NCBI GenBank assembly: GCA_964423315.1
Contig: CAYREO010000016.1
Coordinates: 1,513-65,512, forward strand
Source of the DNA: an uncultured Eubacteriales bacterium
Lineage (GTDB): Bacteria > Acidobacteriota > Aminicenantia > Aminicenantales > Saccharicenantaceae
Direction: 5' to 3'
Length of the DNA stretch: 64,000 nt
The notes beneath the pieces are model-generated. The model made no database searches. It was given only the letters and a program-made list of their open reading frames with translations, and was not told where the DNA came from. Below are positions 4,926-53,846 of this stretch, in pieces; position 1 is the first letter of the stretch, and each line of letters opens with the position of its first letter. The position numbers and the translations under genes were made by a program.

Positions 4926-4952
4926 CCCAGACCGAAGATATTAGGCCTTCCA

Positions 4953-5171: not shown

Positions 5172-5188
5172 TGTCACTTCCCGTCTAC

Positions 5189-5217
5189 ATTTTACGCGAA
5201 ATTCACTATGTTTTCAA
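5189..5217 (-). promoter_or_regulatory. σ70-like promoter for the minus-strand small-ORF/TPR/sulfatase-like operon
   Basis: On the minus strand: TTGAAA-N17-TAAAAT, about 11 nt upstream of the ATG at 5171. Confidence 0.4.
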
Positions 5218-5237
5218 CCTGATAGAATATAAATGAC

Positions 5238-5266
5238 TTGACACGATATCCGATATTATATATATC
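5238..5266 (+). promoter_or_regulatory. σ70-like promoter of the GntR regulator gene (predicts a leaderless mRNA), overlapping a palindromic AT-rich motif
   Basis: TTGACA (5238-5243), N17, TATATC (5261-5266). The ATG at 5273 is only 7 nt downstream, so the mRNA would be leaderless. The spacer carries CGATATCCGATATTATATATATCGG (5244-5268), a near-palindrome. Confidence 0.4.
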
Positions 5267-5272
5267 GGAGAC

Positions 5273-5977: not shown

Positions 5978-6010
5978 ACCCGTCCTGCTCCGGCCACAGT
6001 CCCGGCACCC

Positions 6011-21918: not shown

Positions 21919-22004
21919 GTCTGCGGGGATCCGAGGGCCGGGGGAGCCCCATGTTCTCACAGGCCTGATCATGGCTCTCTTTGTGCCCCTCCTTCCTTTG
22001 GAAT

Positions 22005-23246: not shown

Positions 23247-25534
23247 GCCGGGCCTCCCAGGAGGCGTCGGACGGCTTGACTGATGCGCTCGGGGGACGGG
23301 ATATTCTCGTTCTCAAGGGGGGCCGCCATGGGCGGGGGAACGGAATGGGCCGAAACGATCTCGACCGGAGCTTTGAGGAACGGAAAAGCGTTGCGCTGGA
23401 CCTCAAAGGCGACGTGCTGGGCGAAGCTGCATGTCAGGGGGGATTGGACGACCACCACGCAGCGCCCTGTCTTCTTCACGGAGTCAACTACAGTCGCGGA
23501 ATCCATCGGGATCAGGCTCCGCAGGTCGATGACCTCGGCCTCGACCCCATCGCGGGCCTTGAGCGTTTCGGCGGCGGCCAGGGTGTTTTTCAGAAGGTTC
23601 AGATAGCTGACCAGAGTCACGTCCCCTCCGGCCCGAAGGACGGCCGCGCTACCGAATGGGAGAGTTACGTCTTCGTCCGGTTCCGGGACCTGACCGAGGT
23701 CAGCGTAGAGCATCTGATGCTCGATGAAGACCACGGGGTTGTCGTCGCGAATGGCGGTTTTCAAGAGGCCCTTGGCGTCCCGAGGGGCGAAGGGCGCAAC
23801 GACCTTGAGCCCAGGAAAATGGGCCATGATGGCCTCGAGGCTTTGGGAATGTTGTCCGGCATAGCCTTTCCCACCGCCTACGGTCGTCCGGAGAACAAGC
23901 GGGATACGGGCTTTACCTCCGAACATGTAGCGGGTCTTGGCGACTTGATTGGCCAGCTGGTCCAATGCCAGGGGGATGAAATCGATGTACATGATCTCGA
24001 TGACGGGGCGGAGGCCGGTCATGGCCGCCCCGCAGGCCGTTCCGACGATGGCGGCTTCCGAGATAGGAGCATTGAAGACCCGGCGGCGACCGAAGGTATC
24101 CAGGAGGTCCATGGTCACGCCGAAAGCGCCTCCGTAATCCGCCACATCCTCGCCGTAGAGAACGACCCGCCGGTCGCGCTCCATCTCCTCGGCCAGGGCC
24201 TCCCAGATCGCATGGCGGAAAAGGATCCGCCCACCGGACATCCGTTTGATGCGCCGGACAGGTTTGAGGAGTTGGGTAGTCCTCCAACAAGGTTCGGGGG
24301 TGGCAGGAGGTTCGTCAACCCATAGCCCTTCAGCGATCTCCTCGACCCTCGGTTCCGGAGAGAGTGCGGCCCGGACAGCCGCTTCCCTCGTCCTACGCTT
24401 CATTTCGAGCCGGGCGAGCTCGGCCTGTTCCCGGCTGAGCACACCGGCCGCATCGAGCTGCGCCTCGAAACGGGCGATGGGATCCCAATCCTTCCAGGCT
24501 TTCTCCTCCTCGGCAGACCGATAGCTCGTCCGTTTATCGCTCAGAGAATGGCCCAGGTACCGGTAGGTCATGCATTCCAGCAGAACGGGCCCTTCGCCTC
24601 GGCGGCACTTGACGGCCGCCCGGGCGACCGCGTCCCGCACAGCAAGGACGTCCATGCCGTTGACGACCTCTGCGTTCATGTTCCGATGATCATACGCGGC
24701 CCCGCGCCTGGCGAGGTGCCGGATTCCGGTGACTTCCAGGCATTGCTGCCCGGTCATGCCGTACTGATTGTTCTCGATCAGGAAGATAACCGGCAGGCCC
24801 TTTTCGAATTGCGCTTGAGCAGCGAAATTCATCGCTTCGTGGGCTATGCCGTTGTTGGTTGCCCCGTCGCCGACGAAGGTGATCACGATGCGGTCGGTCC
24901 CCAGAAGATGCTGGGCCAGCGCCGCCCCCGTCCCAATGGCGAAGCTCCCGCCGACAATCGCGTTCGCCCCCAGATGATGGGCCTCGAAGTCGGCGATGTG
25001 CATTCCGCCGCCCCGGCCCCGGCAATATCCGTCCTCCTTGCCGAACAGCTCGCAGATCGTCCGGTAGAGGTGACGGTCCAAGGCGCGTTCTTGAAGATCC
25101 CCCTCGCTCTCGTCCAGCCTGGCCGGAGAGGGGCCGGCGAAGGCCTCCAGCTCCGAGCGCGACATTCTGAATATCCGGACGGCCCCCTTGGCGATGGAGT
25201 GACCGTGCCCTCGATGGGTGGAGGTGATGTAATCATCGGCCCGGATCGCCGAGATGGCCCCGGCGGCCGTCGCTTCCTGGCCGATCGACAGATGGGTCGC
25301 GCCGATGAACGGGAAGCCTTCAATGGGAGCGAAAGTCCCCTGTTTCATCTCAACGATCATCTCTTCGAGGGCCCGGTTCATGATCATGAGACGATGAAGA
25401 CGTAGCGCCTCGGCAGAATCGATGGACCGGGCCTTCAGTTCCGCTTCGAGGTTGAGGCGATAAGCATAAAGAGGGATAGGCGGGATCTCGATTTGGCCGG
25501 CGTTGAAATCGGGGAGAATGTCACAGTCTTTCAT
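23243..25534 (-). CDS. TPP-dependent 2-oxoacid/acetoin dehydrogenase E1 component, fused alpha+beta subunits
   Basis: Alpha-like N-half with YITSTHRGHGHSIAKG (TPP-binding YRGHG) and GDGATNNG. Beta-like C-half with LYGEDVADYGGAFGVTMDL and RPVIEIMYIDF. Single ORF of 763 aa. Confidence 0.75.
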   Translation of the reverse strand: MKDCDILPDFNAGQIEIPPIPLYAYRLNLEAELKARSIDSAEALRLHRLMIMNRALEEMIVEMKQGTFAPIEGFPFIGATHLSIGQEATAAGAISAIRADDYITSTHRGHGHSIAKGAVRIFRMSRSELEAFAGPSPARLDESEGDLQERALDRHLYRTICELFGKEDGYCRGRGGGMHIADFEAHHLGANAIVGGSFAIGTGAALAQHLLGTDRIVITFVGDGATNNGIAHEAMNFAAQAQFEKGLPVIFLIENNQYGMTGQQCLEVTGIRHLARRGAAYDHRNMNAEVVNGMDVLAVRDAVARAAVKCRRGEGPVLLECMTYRYLGHSLSDKRTSYRSAEEEKAWKDWDPIARFEAQLDAAGVLSREQAELARLEMKRRTREAAVRAALSPEPRVEEIAEGLWVDEPPATPEPCWRTTQLLKPVRRIKRMSGGRILFRHAIWEALAEEMERDRRVVLYGEDVADYGGAFGVTMDLLDTFGRRRVFNAPISEAAIVGTACGAAMTGLRPVIEIMYIDFIPLALDQLANQVAKTRYMFGGKARIPLVLRTTVGGGKGYAGQHSQSLEAIMAHFPGLKVVAPFAPRDAKGLLKTAIRDDNPVVFIEHQMLYADLGQVPEPDEDVTLPFGSAAVLRAGGDVTLVSYLNLLKNTLAAAETLKARDGVEAEVIDLRSLIPMDSATVVDSVKKTGRCVVVVQSPLTCSFAQHVAFEVQRNAFPFLKAPVEIVSAHSVPPPMAAPLENENIPSPERISQAVRRLLGGPA

Positions 25535-27230: not shown

Positions 27231-30200
27231 TCATCGGCTGTCGGCCGACCCGGCCTTTGCCGGGCCGCTCGGCTCGATTTCGTAGACATGGACGTCATAC
27301 TGGTGCCAGACATCCTTGATCACATCCCGTTCGACCCGCATCTCCCCAGGTACATCGAATAGCTTCCTGACCTTCATCCCCCCGAGACCGTTCAAAGCAA
27401 TCTCAGCTTCCGTCCCCGCATCCCCAACGAGCGCCGCAAGGAGGTAGAGCTTGCCTTCCCAAGTTTTGAGCCGTGTTTCGATCCGCCCCGAAACGGGCTC
27501 GACCCGGACCGGGATGTCCGAATCCCGGGCGGCCAGTATGGGCCACATGAAGTCCATCTCCTGGAACCAGCCGCGAAGCCTCTGGAGCTGATGCTTTTGG
27601 GTACAGACCCAATGATAAAGGCCGTTGGCCCCGTAGATCACGGCCAGATAGGATTCCGCCCGGAATCCGCGCCAGTCGTCCCCCCTCAAAGAGAGGTATC
27701 CCGGGTACTGCTCGGGAACGACTTCGTCGGCGTGAAAGCTGACATAGTAGTTGACCTCGGCCAGACGGAACCGGCCGGGATTGAGCACGGTCTCCGTCTT
27801 CGTCAGGAAAGGCGCGTTCCTCCAGGCCGATCCCGGGCGCCCCATGATCTTCACATAGCAGTATCCGACCGGCGGCCGGGGCCCGATGTCCCAGTCTGGA
27901 CCTTTACGGTCGTAAAGAAAGCTTGAATCATGATGACCCCAGATGACCAGCCTAGGAGAAGTCAAACCAGCGACGATCTCCTCGACCCGCCTCCGGTACC
28001 GAACGAGGTCATCCGTGAGCCTCCAGTAATAGAACTGCTTCCCATAGCAGCCGAGAAATCCGGGATGTACGAGCAGGCCTTCGGCCTCGGCGGCGAAGCG
28101 GTCGAGGATATCCGGATCTCCCGGATGAGGGGATCCCGGGCCGATGATGATCGAATAGGCGTTCAAGGCCCAGGCCTTGTCCCTGTCCTCCAACGAGGCG
28201 GCACCCTGATGATACTGGCCACGGTAGACGTTGGCCCCGAGACGGATGGCATCGTCCCATTCCATGACGTTGACCGAGGGCACGATAGGGAAGAAGCGGA
28301 CATTGCCGTTGAGGACCAAAAAGCCGTTCTCATCCAGTTCGACCTTCTGGATGGGAGGTAGAGGCCGTCTCTCGATCGGGCGGATGCGCCCGAACGGGAT
28401 CCGGGCCCGGCCGAGCTCCCGGCCCGTACGGTCACGGTAGGAGGCCACCATCTCGTAATCCTGGACCGGCAGAGGGTTGACACGCAGGTCAGAGATATCG
28501 AGAGGGATCTCAGTCAGGCTCTCCGAAATCGCTCTATCAAGGACCATTAGGACCTTGTCTTGGGTTCGGTCGCGCAGCTCCACACGGACCTTGCCTCCCG
28601 CGCCGAGCGGGCGCAGCCTAGCATGGATCTCTAGCCGGGCTTGTTCCTCCGGGAAATAGTGGTCCTGGTCGAGGACCGCTTCGATGGCCGGCGGGACGAT
28701 TAACGGATAATAACGGTCCAAAAGGGATCGTCCGCCCTCCTCGATGACCAGTTGGAAGCTGGACATCCTGCCCAGGCCGGCGTCATATTCCAGAGGGACC
28801 GCACAGCATTCTCCGGCTTCTATGTCGACCTGCCGCCTCACGGCCGGACCGTCGCTCATTCCCGCCCGTAAGGACAGGGAGCGCGGCCGGACGTCCTCAT
28901 TGACGAGAACGACCTCGGCCTGGTTCAGGCCAGCATAGATCTGGGGATGGGAGATGAAGTCCTGGGACTGGTCCGTCTCTTCGAAATAGCGCCTCCCGAA
29001 CCTGACGGATTTCACCCGGATCGAGGGGGGGCGGGCCAACTCGATGCGCCCCATCTCTCTACTGTTGGGCGCGCGGCCCGACCATAGGGTCTCCCGGCGA
29101 CCCGCCTTCCAGGCGATAGTGAAGCCAAATTCGTCCTGTCCTGGCCCTTCGAGGCCGAGCGCGGCGAACGGAACGCTGATCCTCCAGCCGGTGCCGGCTT
29201 CTTCTATCCGGACCCCCTTCTCGGCGGCCGGCGCGAAAAGTCCTTCCGAAGTGTAGCCCTGTTTTTCAACCACTGTCCCCAGGCTTCCCGATCCGTCCGC
29301 CGATATGCGGAGGACACTGAAAAGGAAACGCTCGTGATTCAGGAAATCGCTGCGGACCCTCGGATGAAGGTAGACGCGCATGTCGGTCTTCCCACGCTGG
29401 GGGATCCACAGAAAGAGATGGGTCGCATCGTTCTCCGCGCGGATCCCCTTCCGCGCGGCAAGCCGGGTCCCATCACCCCAGCTCGCGCTCAGGACCCGCG
29501 GGGGAATGGCCACTCCCCGCCGGATCAGCTCGGCCTCCGGTGTCGCCCACTCGAAAGCGCGTATGTCGTCGACCCACAACGTCGTGGTCGGCTCGCTCCC
29601 GAGGACGGTGATCCGGACCTCGATCTCCTCAACGGGCTTCAAGGGCAGGAATCCGAAACGAAAATCGGCCCAATCGTGATCGCTGACTCCCAGCGAGAAC
29701 GTCGGGGAGACCTCCTGCATGGTGCCGTCCGTGAAGAACACGAACACCGTCAGGTTGGCCAGGTTGTCGGGGCCCCAGTAGCCGGGTGGCGAGTTCCCGA
29801 CGGAGTTGTCGAGCTTGGATTTTGCGGACAGGACGATCGGGCGGAGAGATCGCTGGTTGATGCGGATCCTTTGCGAGATTCCCGATCCTTCCGTATAAAC
29901 CACGCTGGCGCGAAGGGATCGGCGCCCCGACGCGGACTCGCCGGTCTCGATCTCGGGGGGGCGGTAGGAGGCCCCGACCCAGCTGACCCACTGGTCCTCC
30001 GAGGGAACACCCCACTCCGGAAAAGGCGTGATCGCCGAAACTTCCTCGAAACCCGGGTTCCTGACCAGATTGACTCCTTCAATGTCCTGAAACAGCTCGA
30101 CATCGTCCACCCAGGCCGCCGCTTCCGGGGAACCCGCCGGCAGAAGGAAGGAGATCTCCGCTCCCCACTTCCAATCCGCCGAACGCAGGGACTCCCTGAC

Positions 30201-30698
30201 GATGGTCCAATCGGCGGCGGCCGGCAAGGTCAGTTCCTTAACTAGCGAGGGGCGATCACGGACCGCCCCGAGACGTATAACGGCGCGGAAAGGGCGGTCT
30301 CCCGTTATGCCCGCCGTCTTATACGCAAAAGTGATCTCGATGTCCTCACCCGGCACAATGGGAAGTCCGAACGGCATGCGGCCGTCCTTGACCGTCCAAA
30401 AGTCGGCCTGAAGGACTGCTTTGACCTCCTCCTCCCCTCCTGTCAAATGCACGCTCCGCTTCCCCGAGAATTGGTCTTCCTCCGTGACCCGGGCCCCAGT
30501 TGAGAGGGTCCAATAGGGAAGATAACCGCGGCCGTCGGGATGAATGACGGAGGAGTAGGACGGGAACTGCTCGATGTCATTGACCATGACGCTCTCGGCC
30601 CCGCCGTTGGGAAGGAGCGAAGGGCGATCAGCCCCAAGCGCTCCTCCGAACAGGGCTAGGGCCGCCACAATGGCCGCGACAGCGGACGCGGCCCTCAC
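27231..30698 (-). CDS. Large (1155 aa) secreted protein of unknown function
   Basis: Signal peptide MRAASAVAAIVAALALFGGALGA. No recognisable catalytic motif. Translationally coupled (4-bp overlap) to the upstream transglutaminase-like gene. Confidence 0.6.
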   Translation of the reverse strand: MRAASAVAAIVAALALFGGALGADRPSLLPNGGAESVMVNDIEQFPSYSSVIHPDGRGYLPYWTLSTGARVTEEDQFSGKRSVHLTGGEEEVKAVLQADFWTVKDGRMPFGLPIVPGEDIEITFAYKTAGITGDRPFRAVIRLGAVRDRPSLVKELTLPAAADWTIVRESLRSADWKWGAEISFLLPAGSPEAAAWVDDVELFQDIEGVNLVRNPGFEEVSAITPFPEWGVPSEDQWVSWVGASYRPPEIETGESASGRRSLRASVVYTEGSGISQRIRINQRSLRPIVLSAKSKLDNSVGNSPPGYWGPDNLANLTVFVFFTDGTMQEVSPTFSLGVSDHDWADFRFGFLPLKPVEEIEVRITVLGSEPTTTLWVDDIRAFEWATPEAELIRRGVAIPPRVLSASWGDGTRLAARKGIRAENDATHLFLWIPQRGKTDMRVYLHPRVRSDFLNHERFLFSVLRISADGSGSLGTVVEKQGYTSEGLFAPAAEKGVRIEEAGTGWRISVPFAALGLEGPGQDEFGFTIAWKAGRRETLWSGRAPNSREMGRIELARPPSIRVKSVRFGRRYFEETDQSQDFISHPQIYAGLNQAEVVLVNEDVRPRSLSLRAGMSDGPAVRRQVDIEAGECCAVPLEYDAGLGRMSSFQLVIEEGGRSLLDRYYPLIVPPAIEAVLDQDHYFPEEQARLEIHARLRPLGAGGKVRVELRDRTQDKVLMVLDRAISESLTEIPLDISDLRVNPLPVQDYEMVASYRDRTGRELGRARIPFGRIRPIERRPLPPIQKVELDENGFLVLNGNVRFFPIVPSVNVMEWDDAIRLGANVYRGQYHQGAASLEDRDKAWALNAYSIIIGPGSPHPGDPDILDRFAAEAEGLLVHPGFLGCYGKQFYYWRLTDDLVRYRRRVEEIVAGLTSPRLVIWGHHDSSFLYDRKGPDWDIGPRPPVGYCYVKIMGRPGSAWRNAPFLTKTETVLNPGRFRLAEVNYYVSFHADEVVPEQYPGYLSLRGDDWRGFRAESYLAVIYGANGLYHWVCTQKHQLQRLRGWFQEMDFMWPILAARDSDIPVRVEPVSGRIETRLKTWEGKLYLLAALVGDAGTEAEIALNGLGGMKVRKLFDVPGEMRVERDVIKDVWHQYDVHVYEIEPSGPAKAGSADSR

Positions 30699-32719
30699 TT
30701 CGCCTCCCCCTGGAAGGCCAAAGCTATGCGGCTGACGATGCCCTCCCTGCCGAATCGACTCACGGGCCGGGCCTCAAGGATGTTATCTCCCGGGGCCAGA
30801 CTCCAGGTGAAGGATGCCGCAGACGGTGTCCATTCCCCTCCATTGATGCGGACCTCGAAGGTCTTGAAGTTGGGCGTCACCGTATCGAGGTGGACATCGA
30901 GAAGGTTGGGCCGGTCGGTCGCCGTCAAGTGGATCTCCGCTTGATTGAGGGTCCAGGCGAAGTCCCGGGCGTGGGAGCTGTGGAACGTGTATTCCTCGTA
31001 GGCTGGCAGCGCCGAGTCTTTCCACCAGAGGTACCCGTCGTAATGGTATTGGATGAACCCATGTTCCAGTTCCCCAGGCATCCAGCTGGTCAGAAAATTG
31101 TTTCGCATCGGCATCCCGAAGCGGGATTTCCATTGCCGGGGACCGAGGACCCCTTGTTCGACGTCCTCGGCGCCCGGAAAGCGATCATGGGTACCGACAG
31201 GGACGATCCAGATCTCCTCCGTTCGCGAGGCTCGGGCCAACTCATGGATCTCCAGGGAATCCAGGGGTCTTCCCTCGTGCTTCTGGAAGGCCGCCCGCAG
31301 CGAGTTGGAGGTATTTCCTACATCGATGACGACCCATTTCTCGTGGTCGTTGGACCAGACCTCGGCCGTGAAATGATGGTCGAGGATGATGCCCCTCGCC
31401 TGAAGGCCGACGGCCAGGCAGGTCTGGACGAAGGTGTTGGCGTAGATCGTGCACATCCCGGACGCTTTGTACTGGGGGACCAGTTCGAGCGAGATAAGCG
31501 CGTCCCAAGGGGTATGGAGGGCGGCCTCTCCTTGCGGGCTCCATCCGTCCCGCCAAATGCCCTTGAGCCAAAAGGCCAGCGTCCGGTATTCCTGGAACTC
31601 CGTGGAACAGCCACCTACGACCTCGTTCAGCCGGAACCGTTCCCGGAGGACCTCGAGCCGGCTTTCGCCGGCATCTTGGAACGTATAGGGATAGTACCCG
31701 CGGACGATCCTTCGGTTCTCGCGATCGTCGGCGGCGAGCTTTCCTGGCTGGTGGACGAGGTCGATGTCCGCCGACAGGGACAGGGACCTGAGGACGGGCG
31801 TGCGGCCGTGGTGGGATGTCCGCAACTCCGCCTTCCATTGGACGTAACGCCACTCACTCAAGGTCTCCGAGGACACGCGAGCCGGATCGGTCCAAGCTCC
31901 CCAAGTGGCCGGGTCATAGGAGGGCGTCCGGCCGCCGCGGACCGCCGGGACGATCGACGTCCCGGCCGGCGTCGTGGCGTCCAACCTGAGAGCCAGCCGC
32001 CGCAGCCGGATCGCGGGTTTGACGGCCGTTGCCGCGATCAAGGAGGCCGCATCGATGAAGTCCGAGAGGATCTCGCCCTTTTCCGGATATCGTCCCAGCC
32101 GGAGACGGATGAGGTATTCGCCGTCGATGAACCCTTCGGTCCCCAGCCTGTCCCGATCCCAGGTCCGTCCCCCGTCGAGACTGCGGGCGCTGCGGTTGGG
32201 ATACCGCGAGGCCTCCAGGCTGAAATAGAAGTCGTACTCCGTCGTGTTGCGCAGGACGAAGCTGTTCAAACCGGGGCGAAGCCATTCGACGGGCACGTCG
32301 CAGCGGATCCAGCCGCCCGTCAACATGCGATCGTGATCGATGTCCAGGCGGAGCGGCCGGCCGTTGACCTCGACCCAGAGGAAGGCCCCTTTTTCCTTGA
32401 AGTCCTTGAGATCGTACCGGTTCCAATGGATGAGGAGGACGGCCGACTCGGCCTCGATTCGGTCGAGCTGGAACTCCTTGAGGATGCGGATGTCCCCCTT
32501 CAACATTTCATGCATGCGACCCGTGGTCACACCGGTTTCATCGGTGATCAGCTCGGTCTTGAGGAGACGGATCTCCCCGGGGACCGAGGTGGCGTCGATC
32601 CGCCAATCATAGAGGGTCGCATCCCAGTCCTCGGAGGTCGCAAAGGTCTTTCGGTAAGAAGCCCCGAAAGCCAGCGTCGCGGTAAGGAAAACAATAACAA
32701 AAAATACGGTTCTTTTCAT
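30695..32719 (-). CDS. Secreted transglutaminase-like cysteine-protease-fold protein with BNR/Asp-box motif (paralog 1)
   Basis: Start at MKRTVFFVIVFLTATLAFGAS (ATG 32719, AAGGAG RBS). BNR motif SLDGGRTWD. TGase core Cys-His-Asp: GMCTIYANTF ... HHFTAEVW ... KWVVIDVGN. Confidence 0.75.
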   Translation of the reverse strand: MKRTVFFVIVFLTATLAFGASYRKTFATSEDWDATLYDWRIDATSVPGEIRLLKTELITDETGVTTGRMHEMLKGDIRILKEFQLDRIEAESAVLLIHWNRYDLKDFKEKGAFLWVEVNGRPLRLDIDHDRMLTGGWIRCDVPVEWLRPGLNSFVLRNTTEYDFYFSLEASRYPNRSARSLDGGRTWDRDRLGTEGFIDGEYLIRLRLGRYPEKGEILSDFIDAASLIAATAVKPAIRLRRLALRLDATTPAGTSIVPAVRGGRTPSYDPATWGAWTDPARVSSETLSEWRYVQWKAELRTSHHGRTPVLRSLSLSADIDLVHQPGKLAADDRENRRIVRGYYPYTFQDAGESRLEVLRERFRLNEVVGGCSTEFQEYRTLAFWLKGIWRDGWSPQGEAALHTPWDALISLELVPQYKASGMCTIYANTFVQTCLAVGLQARGIILDHHFTAEVWSNDHEKWVVIDVGNTSNSLRAAFQKHEGRPLDSLEIHELARASRTEEIWIVPVGTHDRFPGAEDVEQGVLGPRQWKSRFGMPMRNNFLTSWMPGELEHGFIQYHYDGYLWWKDSALPAYEEYTFHSSHARDFAWTLNQAEIHLTATDRPNLLDVHLDTVTPNFKTFEVRINGGEWTPSAASFTWSLAPGDNILEARPVSRFGREGIVSRIALAFQGEAK

Positions 32720-32817
32720 GACAGACTCCTTCATTTGGGCGGAAAGGAGGATTGGAGACAAGCCTGTCTCCCTGGATTGGCCCTATCGAAAAGCTTGCTC
32801 AGCCCCATTAGGATATG

Positions 32818-32847
32818 ATAATATCCGATATCATATATTTTAATCAA
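32818..32847 (-). promoter_or_regulatory. σ70-like promoter for TGase-like paralog 1 operon (minus strand), overlapping an inverted repeat
   Basis: On the minus strand: TTGATT-N18-TATTAT. The inverted repeat ATATGATA-ATATCCGATAT-CATATAT (32813-32838) spans the spacer/-10 region. Confidence 0.4.
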
Positions 32848-32951
32848 GGCCTCGACAAAGAATGTTGACCAGCCCGACTATGAGCTCGGCCCCGGATGAT
32901 CTCGCCGGAGGGCCTATTCTATCATGACATAATCCACGGAAGGAGAGAACG

Positions 32952-34382
32952 ATGAGATTCCGCCGACTGCTAGGATGCCTGGCCTTGGCCGCCTTGGCGG
33001 CCGCATGGCCGGCATCCGGACAGGAAAAGTCCATTCTGGAGAAGGAAAATGAGCGGATGGCCCTCAACCGTAAATACGACCGGTACAATCTGAGGGCCAA
33101 GAGGGAGTTCACCGTCGAGCGTTCCGAAGCTTTCCTCAGAATCCCCAAGACGGAGTCCCCGAAAGGTGATTTCCTGAAGGCCCAGACGCCGCCGACGGTA
33201 AAGCTCATGATCCTCCCCGATCTCGAGCCCGAGTATTTCCTAGACATCAAGGACCCCGGGGACGCCTACATGTTTTCCTGGGCCAACTGGGCGTATGTCG
33301 TCCGCAGCGGTGACGGCCGTTTTTACCTCTCGGCCAGCAACCACCGGGGATTCGGGTGCCAAATCAACATCTACGAGTATGTCCCCGACCGCGACCTCCT
33401 GCACCGGGTCGTCGACGTGACCAAGCTCCTCGGCTGGACGCCTCAGAGCTACACCGACGGCAAGATCCACGGCAAGATGGGCCTTATGCCGGACGGGACG
33501 CTCTGGGCCGCCACCCACTACGGACCGCACCCGGACGATCGGTGGTTCGCCAACGGCTACCGAGGAAGCTGGCTGCTCAGCTACAATATCTTCACCCGCG
33601 AAGCCCGGAACTGGGGCATCCCCCTCGTCGGCAGCAACCTCGACAGCTTCCAGCTGGACGCCCGTCGGGGCCGCCTGGTCGGCACCGGTTCATTCAGTCA
33701 TATGGTCCTCTGCTACGACGTGATCAACAAGCAGGCCCGTTTCGCGGGCTACCCTCCCGGCGGATGGAAATGGGGATCCCGGACGCTTCTGCTGGACCAG
33801 GCCACCGGGAAATTTTGGTCGGTCGATTACGACGACGATAACGCCTTCTTCAGCTTCGATCCGGAGTTCAACAGCTTCCAGAAGTTCGACGTTCGCCCGC
33901 CGGTGAGCCCCCTGGACAACAAGCGGGGCATCCCCCGAGGACACACCGACCGCCCGGCGATGGACGGCTGGTACTACTGGGCGACCTGGAACGGCATTCT
34001 GTTCCGGTTCAAGCCGGAAACCCCCGAAGGGCCGCTGGTCGAAACCCTGACGCCGACATGGGACGAGGGGCGCGACGCCCTTCAGTTGGCCATGGAGCCC
34101 ACGGGTCGCTATATCTACTATTATCCGAAGGAGAACTCCCCCATCGTCCAATACGACGTCAAGACGGGCCGGCGCAAGGTCATCGCCTGGCTGCAGGATT
34201 ATTTTTTCGAGAAGTACGGCTATCTGATGGGCCAGGTCTACGGAATGGAGATTTCCGCTGATGGGTCGACCCTCGTCGTGGGGGTCAACGGGGCTTTCGA
34301 GGGACGGGACCAGGCCTTCGGCCACCCGGGTCTCCTGGTCGTCGAGATCCCGGCCTCCGAGAGGAAGGTGGAGGAAAAATGA
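32952..34382 (+). CDS. Secreted protein, member B of the 3-copy paralogous family (β-propeller-like, unknown function)
   Basis: Signal peptide MRFRRLLGCLALAALAAAWPASG. Shares blocks KIHGKMGLMPDGTLWAATHYGP, RRKVIAWLQDYFFEKYGY and LLVVEIPASER with paralogs A and C. Its stop overlaps the start of the next gene. Confidence 0.75.
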   Translation: MRFRRLLGCLALAALAAAWPASGQEKSILEKENERMALNRKYDRYNLRAKREFTVERSEAFLRIPKTESPKGDFLKAQTPPTVKLMILPDLEPEYFLDIKDPGDAYMFSWANWAYVVRSGDGRFYLSASNHRGFGCQINIYEYVPDRDLLHRVVDVTKLLGWTPQSYTDGKIHGKMGLMPDGTLWAATHYGPHPDDRWFANGYRGSWLLSYNIFTREARNWGIPLVGSNLDSFQLDARRGRLVGTGSFSHMVLCYDVINKQARFAGYPPGGWKWGSRTLLLDQATGKFWSVDYDDDNAFFSFDPEFNSFQKFDVRPPVSPLDNKRGIPRGHTDRPAMDGWYYWATWNGILFRFKPETPEGPLVETLTPTWDEGRDALQLAMEPTGRYIYYYPKENSPIVQYDVKTGRRKVIAWLQDYFFEKYGYLMGQVYGMEISADGSTLVVGVNGAFEGRDQAFGHPGLLVVEIPASERKVEEK

Positions 34383-36496
34383 GAAAGCTCGCCCTGCTTC
34401 TGGCCGTGACGGCCGTTCTGGGCCACGGCGCTCCGCCGGTCAAAGCGGCCAAGAACCTTGTATCGGTCTGGGAAAAAGGGGCCGCCGCGATCTACGAGAC
34501 CGGATTCGCGTCCGGCGTGATGAGGCTCGCCGACGGCGTCGGCCTGTTCAACATGGATCTCATAGAGAACGATGCCCCCGGCTCGGGGATCAGCGAGAAG
34601 GGAGCCAACACGGACATCATCTGGGAAGGATCCAGGGCCCGCAAGGTGCTTCGCCTCGAAGACCCGAGGGCCGTCCGGGCATGGATCGTGGTCTATGTCA
34701 TGAAGAAAGGCCCCCACCCGCTGACCTTCGCCGTCAACGGCCGCGAAAGCCGGATTCTGTCCTGGGACGATCAAGCCAATCACGAATGGTATAGATGGGC
34801 GGAGTTTCCAGTCTCATGGCTGGTCAAAGGGAACAACAATATCGACCTTTACTGCCCCGAGGCCTCATCGCCCGAAGAAGGATGGGAGATCCAGCTGGCG
34901 CGGGCCGACGAGTTCATCGACGGCGGGGGCGATCCCCGCCTGGCCGGCGAAACATCCTTCAAGTCCGCCGACGGCGGGCGCACTTGGAGGAAAAGCCCTT
35001 TCGGGCCAGACGAGAAGACCCGGGCCGAGTATACGGTGCGGCTGAGCCTGGACCGATACATCCCGTCGGGATGGCTGGCCTCCCCCGTCATCGACCTGTG
35101 GAAGGGTGGCGGCGATGAGGTCATCGTCCCGCTTCGGCGCCTCGAGCGTATGCGTCTGAGGGTCGCAGCCGACGCCCCTCGCGGAACTCAGGTCCGATAC
35201 TTCCTTCGAAAGGGAGACGAGCCCGGCCCCCAAGCCGACGGCTGGACGCCTTATGAGCCCGTCGGGGCGGGGCCGGTTTTGGACATGGCTCTGGAGGGGC
35301 ACGAGCTCAACCGCCGGTACATCCAGTTCAAGGCCGAGCTGTCGACGGCGGACCCGCTCATCACTCCACTCGTCAAGTCGGCCCGGGTGGAAGCGGAACT
35401 GACCCAGAACGTCCCCGATCCGGGGAACCTCTTCGTCGTGAGCGCCGATAATCCTCCCATCCAGTACTCCTCGCTCGACTGGGAATGGGAGAAAGACGAC
35501 CGGCCAGAGTTCGCGGCCCTCCGCCTCCAAGAGAACCTCGATGAAGTCGTCCAGGGGAGCCGGACGCCCTTCGAGGCCATGGTCAGACTCGGCGCCTACG
35601 TCGCCAAACGATGGCGCAACAGCAGCCCGTTGCCAGACTACCCCGGTTGGGGCGCATTGTCCATCTTCGATCGGATATCGAGGGCGGGGGGCGGGGGCAT
35701 GTGCATCCAACTCAACCTGGCCTTAGGCGGCGCCTGCATGGCCTATGGCTGGCAGGCCCGCCATGTCAACGTCATCGGGCACGAGGTCATCGAGGTCTGG
35801 AACGACGATCTCGGCAAGTGGGTCTTTTTCGACGCCGATTATCTCCAGCACTACAACGCGGACGCCCGGACAGGGGAGCCCATGAGCCTACTCGAGCTGC
35901 ATCGGATGTTCCTCGACTATTATTTCCCGGACCGGCCGATCGACTGGATGGCCGACCGCATGAGTTGGATGGCCCCCGAAGACGGCCGCCCCTTCCCTGT
36001 TCTGAGGGGCTCCTCCGTATACCTTCCCGACGCGGTCATGAGCGGCTTCATCAACGCCGCATTCCTGAGGATCATTCCCCGCAACAACTGGTATGAGAAA
36101 CCCACACCGCGGCCCCTCAACCACGGCCTCTCCCAGTGGCCGTGGGACGGGTATGTCAATTGGTACGATGACAGGACCCCTCCCAAGCGGCAGTACTCCC
36201 GGTTCACCGACCGGCCCCGGGACCTGTGGCCGGACCTCAATCGGGTCCGCATCGACGCAACGAGCGGGGCCGGCAACGACGTCCTCTTCCTCCACTTCGA
36301 GACCTACACTCCGAACTTTAGCCACTTCGAGGTCGACGTCGACGGCGCGGGGTGGGTCCGGACGGGAAGCCGCTGGACCTGGCACCTGCAGGCGGGCCGG
36401 AACACGCTCAGGGCCCGGGCGGTCAGTCGGATGGGGGTCGGAGGCAAGCCGGCGGTCCTTACCATCAACCATGTCAACCAGCCGTTCAGCCGCTAA
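34379..36496 (+). CDS. Secreted transglutaminase-like cysteine-protease-fold protein with BNR/Asp-box motif (paralog 2)
   Basis: Signal peptide MRKLALLLAVTAVLGHGAPPVKA. BNR motif SADGGRTWRKS. TGase core GGGMCIQLN ... GHEVIEVW ... KWVFFDADY. C-terminal TYTPNFSHFEV parallels TVTPNFKTFEV of paralog 1. Confidence 0.75.
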   Translation: MRKLALLLAVTAVLGHGAPPVKAAKNLVSVWEKGAAAIYETGFASGVMRLADGVGLFNMDLIENDAPGSGISEKGANTDIIWEGSRARKVLRLEDPRAVRAWIVVYVMKKGPHPLTFAVNGRESRILSWDDQANHEWYRWAEFPVSWLVKGNNNIDLYCPEASSPEEGWEIQLARADEFIDGGGDPRLAGETSFKSADGGRTWRKSPFGPDEKTRAEYTVRLSLDRYIPSGWLASPVIDLWKGGGDEVIVPLRRLERMRLRVAADAPRGTQVRYFLRKGDEPGPQADGWTPYEPVGAGPVLDMALEGHELNRRYIQFKAELSTADPLITPLVKSARVEAELTQNVPDPGNLFVVSADNPPIQYSSLDWEWEKDDRPEFAALRLQENLDEVVQGSRTPFEAMVRLGAYVAKRWRNSSPLPDYPGWGALSIFDRISRAGGGGMCIQLNLALGGACMAYGWQARHVNVIGHEVIEVWNDDLGKWVFFDADYLQHYNADARTGEPMSLLELHRMFLDYYFPDRPIDWMADRMSWMAPEDGRPFPVLRGSSVYLPDAVMSGFINAAFLRIIPRNNWYEKPTPRPLNHGLSQWPWDGYVNWYDDRTPPKRQYSRFTDRPRDLWPDLNRVRIDATSGAGNDVLFLHFETYTPNFSHFEVDVDGAGWVRTGSRWTWHLQAGRNTLRARAVSRMGVGGKPAVLTINHVNQPFSR

Positions 36497-36565: not shown

Positions 36566-39091
36566 TCACCTCAGATCGAGGAAATAGTCCCCGTTCTTGA
36601 GGTCCCAGGAGGGCGAGAAAAAGCCCATCGCCCTGGCGGCGGACCACCCGTACCCGGCCAGCTCCCGCCCGGCGACCACGAAGTCCGGGGTGCTCATCCT
36701 CTTGTCGATCGGCTGGATCCGGACGATGTCTTTTTCCATCCTCATCGTCGTCCCCGCGTAGATGGCCATCAGCCTCGAGGGGTTGAGAGGATTGGGATAG
36801 ACCATGGCCACACCCAGGTCCTTCTCCTCCAACGGCTGACCGTCGAAAATTACCGTGTCGCCCTCGATCCTCAGGGGGAGCTCGGCGGAGACCCGGGCCG
36901 TCATCGAGTTCCTCTCGGGAGACCCGAAGAGGATGAGGTTGAAATCCCGAAGCGTGGCGTCCTCGACATCTCGGTCGGCGACGATGCGGATGAAGCCGTT
37001 GGCCCAACGCCAGAACCTCCGGGCGTATATGCGGGCGTTGTTCAGAAGGGCCTCAGTCTCCTCGGGGCTTCCCTGGGTGCCGTAGACGAGAACGGCGGGC
37101 TTATAGAAAGCGTTCCGCAGAGGGCCCGACAGGTCCGGGGTCTTGCGCAACCCCGGCCCCGGATCGGGACCCAGGACGACTTTGCGGTTCGGTGGGATGG
37201 TCACCCGGCTCTCCCGGCCGTTCCAGTCCACAGAGACCTCCGAGCCCCGGATTAGGGCTTCCGGTAGATGGAGCTCCAAGCGCGAGACATTCTTGGTCTT
37301 CAAGAGGATGCTCCCTCCGCGGACCTCGGCTCGGATGGGCGTCAGATCGAAGGCCCGCTCCTGCTCGAGGACCCGGACCCAATAAAACGTATCGTTGACG
37401 CCGATGTCGATCATCCGGACGTCGAACTCTTCCGGGAATTCCAATCGCCGCTGCTTCTCCAGGAAGCCGATGACCTCGGGATGATCGATGCAGACCGCCC
37501 ATAGGCGTCCCTCCCCCTCGTCGATCCTGGGCTCGAACCAGAAATGGGGCCTTCCCGGGACTTCCAAATACCGGAACGGGATGCCGAGATCCCGCACCCG
37601 GGCCTGAAAGAGGCGAGGATTGATGGGATAGACGACGTTGTCGCTGCCCCCATGGATCATGTAGAGGGGTATGAGCCGCGCGTTCTCGGCGTAACCCAGG
37701 AGGTGCCGATCAAGGGACATCCGGGCCATCATCCCCCGGATGCCTGGCGCCGCATAAATGTGGCTTCGGCCGAGGTGGGGCGACGATAGGACCATCGGGG
37801 ACGCATAGGACGCTTCGGGCGCCGACGCCGCGAACTTCGAGGGGAACATCAGGGCGTGATAGAGGCTTCCGTGGCCCCCCATCGAGGCCCCGGTCAGGCA
37901 GACCCGGTCGAGATCGATCCTGTGCCGGTCAGCGACCTCATCCAGCACCTCATGAAGGTCGATCTGCCCCCAGGCGTGGTACTCGAGACCCCACGGCCGG
38001 CGGTCGGTCGTGGCCACTACGAAGGCCCAGTCCTTGTTGTCGTGGGCCTCGGCCATGATGAGGCCTTCGTCCCCCGAACCATGGAGGGAGAACAGTATCC
38101 CATAGGATTTCAGGGGATCGTAGTGGCGCGGATAGCGGATGGCGTAGTACTGGACCGAACCGTCGATCCGCGACAGGAATGTCACCTTGTGCGGCTGCCG
38201 CCGGTCCTTGGCCCGCAGGGACGCTTTGAAGAGCGTCAGGGTCCGTGGGCCGTCCTTGACGAGGATGGTCAGCTCGTGGCCGTCCGCTTCGGCGGGCAGC
38301 GCTTCGGCCTGAGACAACGGCAGGGGGACCTTCATGACCGATAACGGCGCCAGGGGCGGGACGGCTGATTCCGTCCTCCGGAACAAGCCGTCGCCCTCAA
38401 TGACCACCTTGAGACCCTTCTGCCACTTGTCTGTCGTGTTGACGATCGGGACGCCCATGTGCGATGACAACCGTTCGTCCCTCAGGATATCCGGCCGGGT
38501 GAGATCATCCAGGATCTGGACCGGCGACTCCGCCTTCCGTACAGAGCAGCTGAAGCTGGGATCCCCGGATCCGCGGAACTTGAGGAGGAGGCGGTTTTTG
38601 CCCGGGCGGAGGATTACCGGCACGCCGTTGTACCCGAAACCGTAGAATTCCCCGTCCATGCGCACTCCGTTGACCCAGAACGTCGGGACGCTCCTGGTGA
38701 AGACGAGGACGGCGGTCCTGTCCTTGACCTCCAGTTCGGCATGCGCATAGCCGACATTCATATAGCCTTCCGAGCGGCTGTCAGATCCATAGCGTTGGTG
38801 GAGAAAGGCCCAGTTCGTGTTCGGGTACTCAACCTTGACGTTCGGCCCGTCGGCCTTGAGTTCGAACCATCGGAGGACCCCCCCGTCCGGCTGGGGGGCG
38901 TAGAACACGTGGCCGGCGGACGGAACGATGGTCTCCTCCCCTCCGTGGGGAATCAGGAAATCGAGGTCCATCTCTTGGAGCCCGTCGAGGAACGGACCCA
39001 GGACCTGCCAACTTGTCACGGGGATCTCCGCCGCGGCAAGGCCGGCGGAAACCGCCAGACACAGGGCGAGAGCGATCGTCCATTTTTTCAT
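36566..39091 (-). CDS. Secreted α/β-hydrolase (S9 prolyl-oligopeptidase/esterase-like) with extra N- and C-terminal domains (tandem paralog 1)
   Basis: Start at MKKWTIALALCLAVSAGLAAA (ATG 39091, GGAGGG RBS). Nucleophile elbow LTGASMGGHG. Candidate Asp in HGGSDNVV and His in PGRPHFWF. Confidence 0.7.
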   Translation of the reverse strand: MKKWTIALALCLAVSAGLAAAEIPVTSWQVLGPFLDGLQEMDLDFLIPHGGEETIVPSAGHVFYAPQPDGGVLRWFELKADGPNVKVEYPNTNWAFLHQRYGSDSRSEGYMNVGYAHAELEVKDRTAVLVFTRSVPTFWVNGVRMDGEFYGFGYNGVPVILRPGKNRLLLKFRGSGDPSFSCSVRKAESPVQILDDLTRPDILRDERLSSHMGVPIVNTTDKWQKGLKVVIEGDGLFRRTESAVPPLAPLSVMKVPLPLSQAEALPAEADGHELTILVKDGPRTLTLFKASLRAKDRRQPHKVTFLSRIDGSVQYYAIRYPRHYDPLKSYGILFSLHGSGDEGLIMAEAHDNKDWAFVVATTDRRPWGLEYHAWGQIDLHEVLDEVADRHRIDLDRVCLTGASMGGHGSLYHALMFPSKFAASAPEASYASPMVLSSPHLGRSHIYAAPGIRGMMARMSLDRHLLGYAENARLIPLYMIHGGSDNVVYPINPRLFQARVRDLGIPFRYLEVPGRPHFWFEPRIDEGEGRLWAVCIDHPEVIGFLEKQRRLEFPEEFDVRMIDIGVNDTFYWVRVLEQERAFDLTPIRAEVRGGSILLKTKNVSRLELHLPEALIRGSEVSVDWNGRESRVTIPPNRKVVLGPDPGPGLRKTPDLSGPLRNAFYKPAVLVYGTQGSPEETEALLNNARIYARRFWRWANGFIRIVADRDVEDATLRDFNLILFGSPERNSMTARVSAELPLRIEGDTVIFDGQPLEEKDLGVAMVYPNPLNPSRLMAIYAGTTMRMEKDIVRIQPIDKRMSTPDFVVAGRELAGYGWSAARAMGFFSPSWDLKNGDYFLDLR

Positions 39092-39128
39092 GATGCCCTC
39101 CTGCTTATGGGATGCTCGTCGAAGGCCC

Positions 39129-41669
39129 TCAGTCCTCGGGCTCATCCTCATCGAGGAAATAATCCCGATTCCCAAGATCCCAGGACGGAGAGAAGAAGCC
39201 CGCTGCCCGGACGCCCGCCCACCCCCACCTGTGGATTTCTTTGCCGGCGACCAGGAAGTCTGGCAGTGAAAAATTCCTGAAGATTGGGAGGACCTTAACA
39301 GCAGCCTTCTCCATCTCGAGGCTCGTCCCCGCATAGACCGCCGCCAGCCTCTCCGGGTTGAGCGGGTTGGGATAGACCATCGCGATCATGAGGTCCGTTC
39401 CGGACAAGACCCGTCCGCCGAAAACGACCCTGTCCCCTTCGACCCGGATGGGAAGGCCCGCTGCGATGCGGGCCGTCACCGAGTTCCTCGCTGACGACCC
39501 GAAGAGGATCACGTTGAAATCGCGGATCACGGCCTCGTCAACCTCCTTGTCGGGGATGATGCGGGTGAATCCGTTGGCCCAGCGCCAGAACCGCTTGGCG
39601 AAATAGCGGGCATTGTCGAGGAGGGCTTCGGTCTCGCCGGGGGTTCCGGCCGTCCCGTAGACCAGCACGAACGGCCGGAAGAAAACGTTCTTGAGGGGCC
39701 CGTGAAGCGCGGAGGTCTTCTTGAGCGGGCCAGGCGATCCGTCACCGACGACGAGTCGCCGCGACGCAGGAATGCGGAACGGCTGCGTTCGTCCGTTCCA
39801 ATCGACGGTCACGGTGTCGGCGGCGATCAGTTCCGTCGGCAGATGGATCTCCATCTGTCGGATGTTGGTCGATGTGATCTCAAGACGGCCGTCGCCGAGG
39901 GAGGCTTCGACGCGGCTCGGGAAGAAAGACCTGAACTGCTCCTTAACGGTGATCCAATAATACGTGTCGTTGACCGAGAGATCGATGAGCCGAAAACGGA
40001 TCTCCCGGGGGAGCTTGACTCGCCTATTTTTCTCGAGGAAGGCCATGATCTCAGGGTGGTCGATACAGACACCCCAGAGCGGACCTTGGCCTTCCTCGGT
40101 TCTCGGCTCGAACCAGAAATGGGGCTTGCCCGGGAACTCGCGATAAACGACGGGATAGCCCAGGTCCCTAAGGCCGGAGACCATCAAACGGGCATGGATG
40201 GGGGGCACAACGTCATCGGCCCCTCCGTGTGTCACCATAAGGGGGAGATGAAGGGCATTTTCCAAGAAGTATGGGAGATGGGTGTCAAGGTAGAGCCGGT
40301 CGATAAGAGCCTTGACTCCTGGGTGACCGAAAACGACCCCCTTTTGCAAATGGAAGGGTGAGTAGATCTGCCGGGAGGAGTAGCCGGCCTCCGGGGCCAC
40401 GGCCGCGAAAAGATGGGGAAAAATCAACCCGTTGTACCAGGCCCCCTGGCCGCCCATGGAAGCGCCCGTCAGGATGACGCGGTCGGGATCAACGACGTAG
40501 CGGGCCTTCATCCGGGCGATGGATTCAAAGAGATCGATCCGCCCCAGGTCGTGCCAGGCGAACCCCCTTGGCCGCCGGTTGGTCGGTGCCGCCACGAAGG
40601 CCCAGTCCTTAGGATCGTGGGCCTCAGCCATGATCTGTCCCTCGTCCCCTCCCCCGTGAAGCGACATGATGAGCCCATAGCTTCGTCCCGGGTCGAACCG
40701 CCGGGGAAGGCGAACGGCGTAGTACTGGGCCGACCCGTCCGCCTCCGAAACAAAGGTCTCGCGGAAGGGCTGGTCAAGGGTTTGGACTCTCAAGGAGACA
40801 TCCCGATTTGCGAGGACCCGGTCTCCCTGAAGAATTTTGACCTTAAGGGTATGCTTCTTAGCCGCCTCGGGCACATCGGCCTTTTGCGAGAACGGGACGG
40901 GCACCTTCATGACCGAGAGCGGAGCCATAGGCGGCACAGAACAGATGCTCTCGGAGAACACGCCGTCGGAGGCGACGACGGCTTTAAGCCCCCGAAGCCA
41001 GTCATCAGTGGTATTGGCGAGGGGCAGTCCCATCACGCCATCTTTGAGGGGGTATCCGCGGACCAAGTCGGGGGTCGTCAGATCCTCCAGGATATGAATG
41101 TCGGAATCCACAGGGCGGATGACGCATGAGAAGGACGCGTCACCTTGGGAGTGATACTTGAGAAGCAACCGGTTCCTGCCGGCCCGGAAAGTGACTGGTG
41201 TGGCGTTGTGGACGTGGGTATAGAATTCTCCGTCCTGGCGGACACCGTTGACCCAGAACGTATGGGCAGATTTCACAAGGATTATGGCTCTGGTCTTCTT
41301 TTCGAATATCAGCTCGGCATAGGCGTAGCCGCTGTTGGTCAGTTCAGCCGCATCCCGCCCGAAGAGCTTCTCAAGGAACGGCCAATCCGTCGCCGGATAC
41401 CGGACTTGAACATCGGGACCCGTCGCCGGGAGATCGAACCATCGCAGAACCCCGCCGTTGGATTGGACAGAAGAGAAGATCTGATCCGGTGAAGGAACGA
41501 TGGCTTCCTCTCCTCCATGGTCAAGGAGGTAATCAACGTCGAAGTCCCTGGGCCCAGAAAGGAAAGGCCCGATCGCCTGCCACTGTTTGACGATGATGTC
41601 CTCGGCTAAAGCCAGGCCGGCGGAGAACAAGCACGAAACCGCGATGATCAAGACCCGGTGATTAAACAC
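39129..41669 (-). CDS. Secreted α/β-hydrolase (S9/esterase-like), tandem paralog 2
   Basis: GTG start with AGGAGA RBS; signal peptide (M)FNHRVLIIAVSCLFSAGLALA. LTGASMGGQG elbow, HGGADDVV, PGKPHFWF. Collinear similarity with paralog 1 throughout (for example SFSCSVRKAESPVQILDDL vs SFSCVIRPVDSDIHILEDL). Confidence 0.7.
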   Translation of the reverse strand: MFNHRVLIIAVSCLFSAGLALAEDIIVKQWQAIGPFLSGPRDFDVDYLLDHGGEEAIVPSPDQIFSSVQSNGGVLRWFDLPATGPDVQVRYPATDWPFLEKLFGRDAAELTNSGYAYAELIFEKKTRAIILVKSAHTFWVNGVRQDGEFYTHVHNATPVTFRAGRNRLLLKYHSQGDASFSCVIRPVDSDIHILEDLTTPDLVRGYPLKDGVMGLPLANTTDDWLRGLKAVVASDGVFSESICSVPPMAPLSVMKVPVPFSQKADVPEAAKKHTLKVKILQGDRVLANRDVSLRVQTLDQPFRETFVSEADGSAQYYAVRLPRRFDPGRSYGLIMSLHGGGDEGQIMAEAHDPKDWAFVAAPTNRRPRGFAWHDLGRIDLFESIARMKARYVVDPDRVILTGASMGGQGAWYNGLIFPHLFAAVAPEAGYSSRQIYSPFHLQKGVVFGHPGVKALIDRLYLDTHLPYFLENALHLPLMVTHGGADDVVPPIHARLMVSGLRDLGYPVVYREFPGKPHFWFEPRTEEGQGPLWGVCIDHPEIMAFLEKNRRVKLPREIRFRLIDLSVNDTYYWITVKEQFRSFFPSRVEASLGDGRLEITSTNIRQMEIHLPTELIAADTVTVDWNGRTQPFRIPASRRLVVGDGSPGPLKKTSALHGPLKNVFFRPFVLVYGTAGTPGETEALLDNARYFAKRFWRWANGFTRIIPDKEVDEAVIRDFNVILFGSSARNSVTARIAAGLPIRVEGDRVVFGGRVLSGTDLMIAMVYPNPLNPERLAAVYAGTSLEMEKAAVKVLPIFRNFSLPDFLVAGKEIHRWGWAGVRAAGFFSPSWDLGNRDYFLDEDEPED

Positions 41670-53811: not shown

Positions 53812-53846
53812 GCCCGGCACGATCATCCCATTTGTTGGAGGTCACC

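Follow-up and report, generated by a model that had tools for sequence, protein, structure and literature searches.

Closest described systems

The stretch of DNA analysed here (64,000 nucleotides, the window) comes from contig CAYREO010000016.1 of an uncultured Aminicenantales bacterium (assembly GCA_964423315.1) and contains two genes, paralog 1 and paralog 2, that code for secreted proteins of 674 and 705 amino acids with a transglutaminase (TGase)-like core. The best explanation of their sequences and models is that both encode Sec-exported, catalytically competent members of a large uncharacterised subfamily of TGase-like (papain-fold) cysteine enzymes. Among solved structures, the top sequence-profile match was PNGase/Png1 (2F4M, 1X3W, 3ESW; E 1e-5), an amidase acting on a glycoconjugate that in mammals also carries a carbohydrate-binding beta-sandwich (PAW domain). 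The same compact TGase core and an H-x3-E motif are common to PNGase and the window family, and the triad of yeast Png1 (C191/H218/D235) is spaced nearly as in the window paralogs (Cys-x26-His-x17-Asp in both). The core of yeast Png1 also has a zinc-binding pair of CxxC motifs. However, PNGase is cytosolic and eukaryotic whereas the window paralogs are secreted and bacterial, its fold alignment with the window core reached 15% identity and a TM of ~0.25, and it has no counterpart to the N-terminal jelly rolls, the 120-amino-acid extension or the C-terminal immunoglobulin (Ig)-like domain of the window family.

Two further relatives are 3ISR (Cytophaga hutchinsonii) and 3KD4 (BDI_1141), bacterial proteins from the polysaccharide-degrading phylum Bacteroidota with a TGase-like Cys-His-Asp core. 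3ISR gave the tightest superposition, with a root mean square deviation of 3.0-3.3 Å in ~120 columns (3.2 Å over 123). Both are structural-genomics entries named only as 'putative' protease, and they differ from the window family in their accessory domains (12-18% identity). The catalytic fold and triad are also those of the animal transglutaminases (TG2, TG3, factor XIII), multi-domain proteins with beta-sandwiches and beta-barrels around the core. These enzymes cross-link, however; their core is much larger and regulated by Ca, their domains come in another order, and they matched at E ~1e-2. Finally, the sialidase-type propellers share with our proteins the Asp-box motif S-x-D-x-G-x-T-W, present in the window family as one copy within a jelly roll and not as one copy per blade. 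Single Asp-boxes are known in non-propeller beta-sandwiches such as the reelin subrepeats.

The catalytic core

The two genes and their catalytic cores are located in the window as follows.

30695..32719, minus strand: paralog 1, secreted TGase-fold protein of 674 amino acids, with its ATG at 32719 preceded by an AAGGAG Shine-Dalgarno sequence
34379..36496, plus strand: paralog 2, secreted TGase-fold protein of 705 amino acids (open reading frame, Pfam, pairwise comparison and AlphaFold2 model)
31322..31459, minus strand: paralog 1 catalytic core, spanning GMC to D (C423, H449, D466; motif positions and family alignment)
35504..35878, plus strand: TGase-fold core of paralog 2, approximately residues 376-500 (C442, H468, D485; Pfam, alignment, models, profile and Foldseek)

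The open reading frame (ORF) of paralog 1 (30695-32761, minus strand) reaches a TTG at 32761, and the ATG at 32719 was preferred as the start because of its Shine-Dalgarno sequence. The proteins are 29% identical to each other over 586 aligned positions (E 1e-49). Their signal peptides, MKRTVFFVIVFLTATLAFG-AS and MRKLALLLAVTAVLGHGAPPVKA-AK, were judged by eye and from the modelled N-terminal helix. The triad is carried by the motifs SGMCT...HHFTAEVW...KWVVID in paralog 1 and GGMCI...GHEVIEVW...KWVFFD in paralog 2. A reading of the sequence alone (the sequence-only reading) had described the pair as paralogs with signal peptides, an Asp-box each, a Cys-His-Asp core and a common C-terminal motif, and all these sequence-level statements check out.

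In a family alignment of 33 sequences that includes both paralog subfamilies, the residues G440, C442, H468, E472, W474, W481 and D485 (paralog 2 numbering) are invariant, as are the Asp-box G and W; the invariant residues include the following E and W. A strict regular expression for the core matched 70 of 80 full-length relatives, with a Cys-to-His spacing of 26 in 60 of them. The Pfam family Transglut_core (PF01841, clan Peptidase_CA) gave the two window proteins 19.6 and 19.4 bits, against a cut-off of 23 bits; it matched 29 of the 33 family members at E<=0.1 (best E 3.4e-15), and two relatives (L073 and L056; L numbers are our handles for related loci) exceed the cut-off with 44.3 and 28.8 bits. 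A profile of the 33-sequence alignment compared with the PDB found mouse PNGase (2F4M) at the E value given above, TgpA (6G49, 8.6e-4) and yeast PNGase (1X3W, 0.009). The PNGase and TgpA alignments all pass through the GxC...H...D motifs, and the triad aligned residue for residue with that of PNGase. Single-sequence phmmer searches of the PDB returned noise only. NCBIfam had no model matching the two paralogs or the 476- and 1155-amino-acid products of the genes beside them.

When residues 345-622 were modelled alone (mean predicted local distance difference test score, pLDDT, 82.5), the 50 best Foldseek matches all belonged to the transglutaminase/papain superfamily (TGase-, NAT- and PNGase-type folds), led by arylamine N-acetyltransferases (NAT1, 6e-4), PNGase (9e-4) and the Cytophaga putative cysteine protease 3isr (2e-3), with TG2/3 (E ~1e-2), Rad4, LapG (4u65_E, E 0.03) and TglA further down. 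The TGase fold, in which the helix with the Cys packs against an antiparallel sheet bearing His and Asp, is seen in the AlphaFold2 models as helix 442-454 followed by strands 460-465, 468-475 and 480-485. With identities of 12-20% in these fold matches, none of the solved structures is a close relative.

The data thus support both paralogs as TGase-fold proteins with an intact Cys-His-Asp triad. It is the family-level evidence (alignment, profile and Pfam over the members) that settles the membership; in Pfam the window proteins alone are sub-threshold. The sequence-only reading had made its assignment depend on the presence of the triad and on the absence of a glycoside-hydrolase match; the triad is invariant in the alignment, and neither paralog matched a glycoside-hydrolase family in Pfam or NCBIfam.

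Domain architecture

The AlphaFold2 model of full-length paralog 2, built from the 33-sequence alignment, had a pLDDT of 89.8 and a predicted TM score of 0.88. In this model the signal peptide, with a helix at residues 2-16, is followed by two jelly-roll beta-sandwiches, the TGase core, an extension of ~120 amino acids and an Ig-like beta-sandwich. In the best explanation both paralogs have this build. The modules outside the core, and the Asp-boxes, lie at the following positions.

34451..34903, plus strand: jelly-roll beta-sandwich 1 of paralog 2, approximately residues 25-175 (AlphaFold2 model; Foldseek matches to jelly-roll and carbohydrate-binding module (CBM)-like proteins; weak CBM profile match to 2w3j, E 0.011)
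34946..35413, plus strand: beta-sandwich 2 of paralog 2, approximately residues 190-345, starting with the Asp-box hairpin (AlphaFold2 model)
34964..34987, plus strand: Asp-box SADGGRTW of paralog 2, residues 196-203 (motif search; conserved in the alignment)
32159..32182, minus strand: Asp-box SLDGGRTW of paralog 1, residues 180-187 (motif search; conserved in the alignment)
35879..36238, plus strand: family-specific extension of paralog 2, approximately residues 501-620 (alignment, AlphaFold2 model)
36245..36472, plus strand: C-terminal Ig-like beta-sandwich of paralog 2, approximately residues 623-698 (alignment, AlphaFold2 model)

The significant Foldseek matches of the full model in the PDB were mostly to proteins that contain jelly-roll or CBM-like beta-sandwich domains, including GH35 beta-galactosidases, reelin, a phage baseplate protein, birnavirus VP2 and CBM22. 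With TM values <= 0.16 these were read as single-domain matches, uninformative on the core. The GH35 matches (TM ~0.1) are read here as matches to the accessory beta-sandwich domains of those enzymes.

An Asp-box was found in 74 of the 80 full-length relatives, and 73 have exactly one. The BNR-TGase architecture proposed from the sequence alone is not supported: each paralog does have a single Asp-box, but a sialidase-type six-bladed propeller has one Asp-box per blade, and here the single motif is a hairpin within a domain modelled as a jelly-roll beta-sandwich. The Pfam BNR model matched one of the 33 members (E 0.039).

The extension is mostly irregular in the model yet confidently placed. 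It is rich in invariant Arg, Asn, Trp and Tyr residues, with an invariant arginine at R568, a near-invariant N569-N570 and conserved HG and WDGY..W motifs. Pfam scans of the 33 members gave no match to this stretch. The C-terminal motif TxTPNFxxFEV that had been noticed in both proteins, and which was read again in the sequences as TVTPNFKTFEV in paralog 1 and TYTPNFSHFEV in paralog 2 (36302-36334), falls within the Ig-like sandwich.

Family size and distribution

Paralog 2 has >300 full-length ortholog matches (54-79% identity) and paralog 1 has 82; those with a name are called "transglutaminase-like domain-containing protein" and come mostly from Latescibacterota bins. The search of the family profile against 1.84 billion 50%-identity representatives found 6386 proteins with E<=1e-3, of which 773 had E<=1e-30; the majority of the proteins listed are full-length (650-730 amino acids). 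At least 563 encoding loci are found in species-representative genomes (one genome per species). The family is present in Latescibacterota, Omnitrophota, Aminicenantes/Acidobacteriota, KSB1, Planctomycetota, Gemmatimonadaceae, Verrucomicrobiota and Bacteroidota, and also in Victivallis and one Bathyarchaeota bin. Cultured hosts are Oleiharenicola lentus (Verrucomicrobiota) and Flagellimonas olearia (Bacteroidota). The two window paralogs belong to separate orthologous groups whose divergence is ancient.

A tandem array of four copies is seen in one Latescibacterota genome, which has a paralog-1-type copy elsewhere, and another bin has at least 12 contigs each with a family copy; tandem copies within the fetched flank were seen in only 6 of 76 loci. 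The duplicated form had been regarded as unusual. With such copy numbers per genome duplication is the rule in this very large, routinely multi-copy family and that claim falls; the window pair is an ordinary representative, typical of its lineage.

Some Bacteroidota members (L073 9986-10300; L082 9719-10100) begin with lipoprotein-like signal peptides, for example ...AVSFLCNCTGDQ. This suggests that the proteins of SusC/SusD loci are anchored at the cell surface; the window pair differs in having plain Sec signal peptides.

Genomic neighbourhoods

To compare the surroundings of these genes, the ORFs called in 87 related loci were clustered with the window proteins. No universal neighbour was found by this clustering: the largest non-TGase cluster was united by Por_Secre_tail-type C-termini, and another consisted of antisense ORFs. 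The neighbours are variable yet mostly glycan-catabolic, and this theme is consistent. In Flagellimonas the TGase gene comes directly after SusC-SusD, in a locus with FecR, heparinase II/III-like/DUF4962 and DUF4861 genes. A Roseivirgaceae bin has BNR_2 sialidase-like, GH20b and heparinase-like genes on one side of the TGase gene, and on the other Amidohydro_2, an SSF transporter, GFO_IDH_MocA and an AGE-family epimerase. A Latescibacterota ortholog of paralog 1 (L002) is surrounded by the same AGE/Amidohydro_2/SSF/M20/GFO set, and another Latescibacterota copy adjoins a heparinase II/III gene. In Oleiharenicola the context is related to peptides, with an M81/MlrC peptidase, an aminotransferase and CstA, beside D-Ser-dehydratase-like and GH63-like genes. 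The window itself codes for a Pec_lyase, a sulfatase, an FGE-sulfatase/CBM9 protein, two S9 esterase/peptidase paralogs, M20, PIG-L, PfkB kinases and GFO_IDH_MocA.

The closest relative (L004), with a paralog 2 ortholog 79% identical, has, in this order, the FGE-sulfatase/CBM9 gene, a 476-amino-acid gene, paralog 2, three S9 genes, M20 and an alcohol dehydrogenase (ADH), without paralog 1 among them. The divergent arrangement of paralogs 1 and 2 is thus not conserved even there; their adjacency is a local arrangement and not a conserved unit. An ortholog of paralog 1 in another metagenome contig (L006) has no 1155-amino-acid gene beside it and adjoins a block (L006 3454-9492) that matches window 19466-25534 (minus strand). 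This block codes for a mannitol dehydrogenase, a Zn-ADH, a thiolase and a fused E1/transketolase-like protein of 763 amino acids. The two S9-peptidase/esterase paralogs of the window (36566-41669, minus strand) are ~850-amino-acid proteins in tandem with 53% identity, of which L004 has three tandem copies; the start of the S9 ORF listed with 922 amino acids is probably further in, at MKKWTIALAL.

Partner genes

Each paralog is coupled to another gene of the same orientation, and the four genes form two pairs.

32952..34382, plus strand: 476-amino-acid secreted partner of paralog 2 ('propeller B' of the sequence-only reading), with no Pfam domain
27231..30698, minus strand: 1155-amino-acid secreted protein paired with paralog 1, with no Pfam or PDB match

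The coupling claimed earlier for both pairs is borne out by 4-nt overlaps, ATGA (34379-34382) between the 476-amino-acid gene and paralog 2 and GTGA (30695-30698) between paralog 1 and the 1155-amino-acid gene. The exact sequence of each of the four products (674, 705, 476 and 1155 amino acids) is present in a public protein collection.

For the 476-amino-acid protein 172 relatives were found in the database, every one a hypothetical protein with no Pfam domain, and against PDB profiles it gave only non-significant matches to seven-bladed lactonase-like propellers (E 0.18-0.62). Four proteins of ~770 amino acids (P0392, P0421, P0426 and P0430, one of them annotated as Armatimonadota) are fusions of an N-terminal TGase-like domain of ~310 amino acids with a full-length homolog of the 476-amino-acid protein (~55% identity). 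Their TGase-like part has the motif GGGWC...H...D and matches Transglut_core at E ~5e-6, and the comparison of the fused core with our family profile gave an hhalign probability of 94% (E 1e-7). In another genome a tight operon contains a TGase gene (54% identical to paralog 2), a LamG/CARDB gene (1161 amino acids) and a homolog of the 476 family with 466 amino acids. The 476 gene is adjacent to the paralog 2 ortholog in L004 and L088 and nearly so in L092/L093, and in L041 a more distant homolog lies just upstream of the TGase gene. Neighbours of 521 (L001) and 518 (L002) amino acids were discarded as homologs at 16-17% identity. The fusions (a Rosetta-stone link) and the recurring gene neighbourhoods indicate that the 476 family probably works with a TGase-fold enzyme, and that paralog 2 and its partner probably act together, since they are co-translated here and the partner is fused to a related TGase core elsewhere.

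The window has three paralogs of the 476 family (7249-8805, 32952-34382 and 59630-61051), all secreted, with ~470-520 amino acids and 30-38% identity, and none with a Pfam domain or a significant match in the PDB. The third overlaps the FGE-sulfatase/CBM9 gene by 4 nt (window 57504-61051 region), and directly downstream of it is a DUF5703_N protein (758 amino acids, E 4e-62; window 61076-63352). In L004 the FGE-sulfatase/CBM9 ortholog is directly upstream of the pair formed by the 476 gene and paralog 2 (1241-6887). The gene orders suggest that FGE-sulfatase/CBM9, the 476 family and paralog 2 are one shuffled module.

As for the 1155-amino-acid protein, no homolog was found in any of the 87 related loci, so its link to paralog 1 is lineage-specific. 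It is not the 1191-amino-acid LamG partner of other TGase loci (E 0.41). A protein of 1274 amino acids with Laminin_G_3 and CARDB domains is encoded in the window at 53676-57500, 17 kb from paralog 2. Its homologs, 46-58% identical, lie directly beside TGase genes in at least six loci (L002, L003, L031, L036, L067 and L089).

Possible function

We give an even chance to the reading that the paralogs are secreted cysteine amidases or peptidases acting on glycoconjugates. The beta-sandwich domains, which are of a kind that often binds carbohydrate, would hold a glycan or glycoconjugate, and the thiolate/imidazolium pair would attack an amide (or ester) carbonyl, forming a thioester intermediate that would then be hydrolysed. 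The substrate cleft is probably lined by the conserved R-N-N and by the aromatic motifs found in the extension. Such an enzyme would serve the breakdown of glycans outside the cell or in the periplasm, and its step there would be to strip or cut the peptide, amino-acyl or N-linked portions of complex glycans or of glycoproteins. We infer hydrolysis over cross-linking of the animal type from the catabolic gene context and from what characterised enzymes with a compact TGase-like core do: PNGase, LapG and the pseudomurein endoisopeptidases are hydrolases.

Several points weigh against this reading. Acetyltransferases and cross-linking transglutaminases match the fold equally well, so the chemistry may be hydrolysis or transfer. 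The two CxxC zinc motifs of PNGase are absent: paralog 2 has its cysteines at positions 159, 442 and 453, thus none between 159 and 442, and paralog 1 at 140, 371, 423 and 434, with no CxxC in either. The window proteins score just under the Pfam gathering score, the neighbourhoods are heterogeneous with no universal partner, carbohydrate binding by the beta-sandwiches would follow from the resemblance of modelled folds only, and literature searches found no paper on the family.

The alternative that survives best, although we think it unlikely, is a processing or release protease that matures or sheds the co-encoded giants (the 1155-amino-acid protein or the LamG/CARDB proteins of ~1200 amino acids), as LapG does with LapA. 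It would account for the overlap of paralog 1 with the 1155-amino-acid secreted gene and for the TGase genes beside LamG/CARDB giants in the six loci named above, and LapG is itself among the weak fold matches. However, most of the 87 loci have no giant neighbour, the 1155-amino-acid protein has no homolog near other TGase genes, and neither the paralogs nor the 33 members matched the LapG/BTLCP family of Pfam. The tandem array of four TGase genes and the position after SusC/SusD better fit diversified substrate-degrading enzymes.

Distinctly less probable is a true cross-linking transglutaminase that stabilises a surface layer, a matrix or an enzyme assembly. The fold and the triad, the Foldseek matches to TG2 and TG3 and the profile match to TgpA would all fit such a role, but the gene contexts are catabolic and not of envelope biogenesis, the compact core aligns best with PNGase, and the characterised PF01841-like bacterial enzymes are hydrolases. 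A non-catalytic glycan-binding or scaffold protein with a relict TGase fold, as in Rad4/XPC, is very improbable: beta-sandwiches make up three of the five modules, the Flagellimonas gene directly follows SusD, a position often held by surface glycan-binding proteins, and Rad4 is among the fold matches, but two subfamilies with only ~25-30% identity to each other have the Cys, His and Asp without exception and the strict motif is kept in most relatives, which would be unexpected for a relict site.

If the family does consist of glycoconjugate-directed cysteine amidases or peptidases, it would represent an abundant missing activity in models of the breakdown of decorated polysaccharides and glycoproteins by uncultured sediment and soil bacteria and by some cultured Bacteroidota and Verrucomicrobiota. 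Its 50%-identity clusters number in the hundreds, and a single genome often has many copies. With Flagellimonas olearia and Oleiharenicola lentus there are two cultured hosts in which the question can be approached by experiment. The proteins belong to the known TGase-like superfamily and are already automatically annotated as such; neither Pfam nor the PDB nor the searchable literature describes the fixed five-module architecture, the extension domain, the association with SusC/SusD and lyase loci or the link to the 476 family. More speculatively, and with a low probability in our view, the TGase family, the 476 family and the LamG/CARDB giants might form a widespread unrecognised extracellular system in which a cysteine amidase resembling PNGase takes peptide, amino-acyl or N-linked decorations off complex glycans; this would be a new class of enzymes, outside CAZy, in the polysaccharide utilisation loci of Latescibacterota, Verrucomicrobiota, Bacteroidota, Planctomycetota and others.

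The divergent intergenic region

The two gene pairs are separated by a single spacer.

32720..32951, no strand: divergent intergenic region, 232 bp with 49% GC (composition and repeat search)

The paralogs had been described as transcribed divergently from a shared AT-rich region with an inverted repeat. The gene layout, the region and the palindrome are as described, but the gene directly opposite paralog 1 is the 476-amino-acid gene and not paralog 2. The GC content of the spacer, compared with 62% for the window, is in the lowest 2% of 232-bp windows, and its core drops to 36%. The perfect palindrome ATATGATA-N8-TATCATAT (8+8 with an 8-nt spacer) is located at 32813-32836. It has no second occurrence within the window from which a regulon could have been defined. 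The minus-strand gene has sigma-70-like -10 hexamers that overlap this palindrome, a candidate operator.

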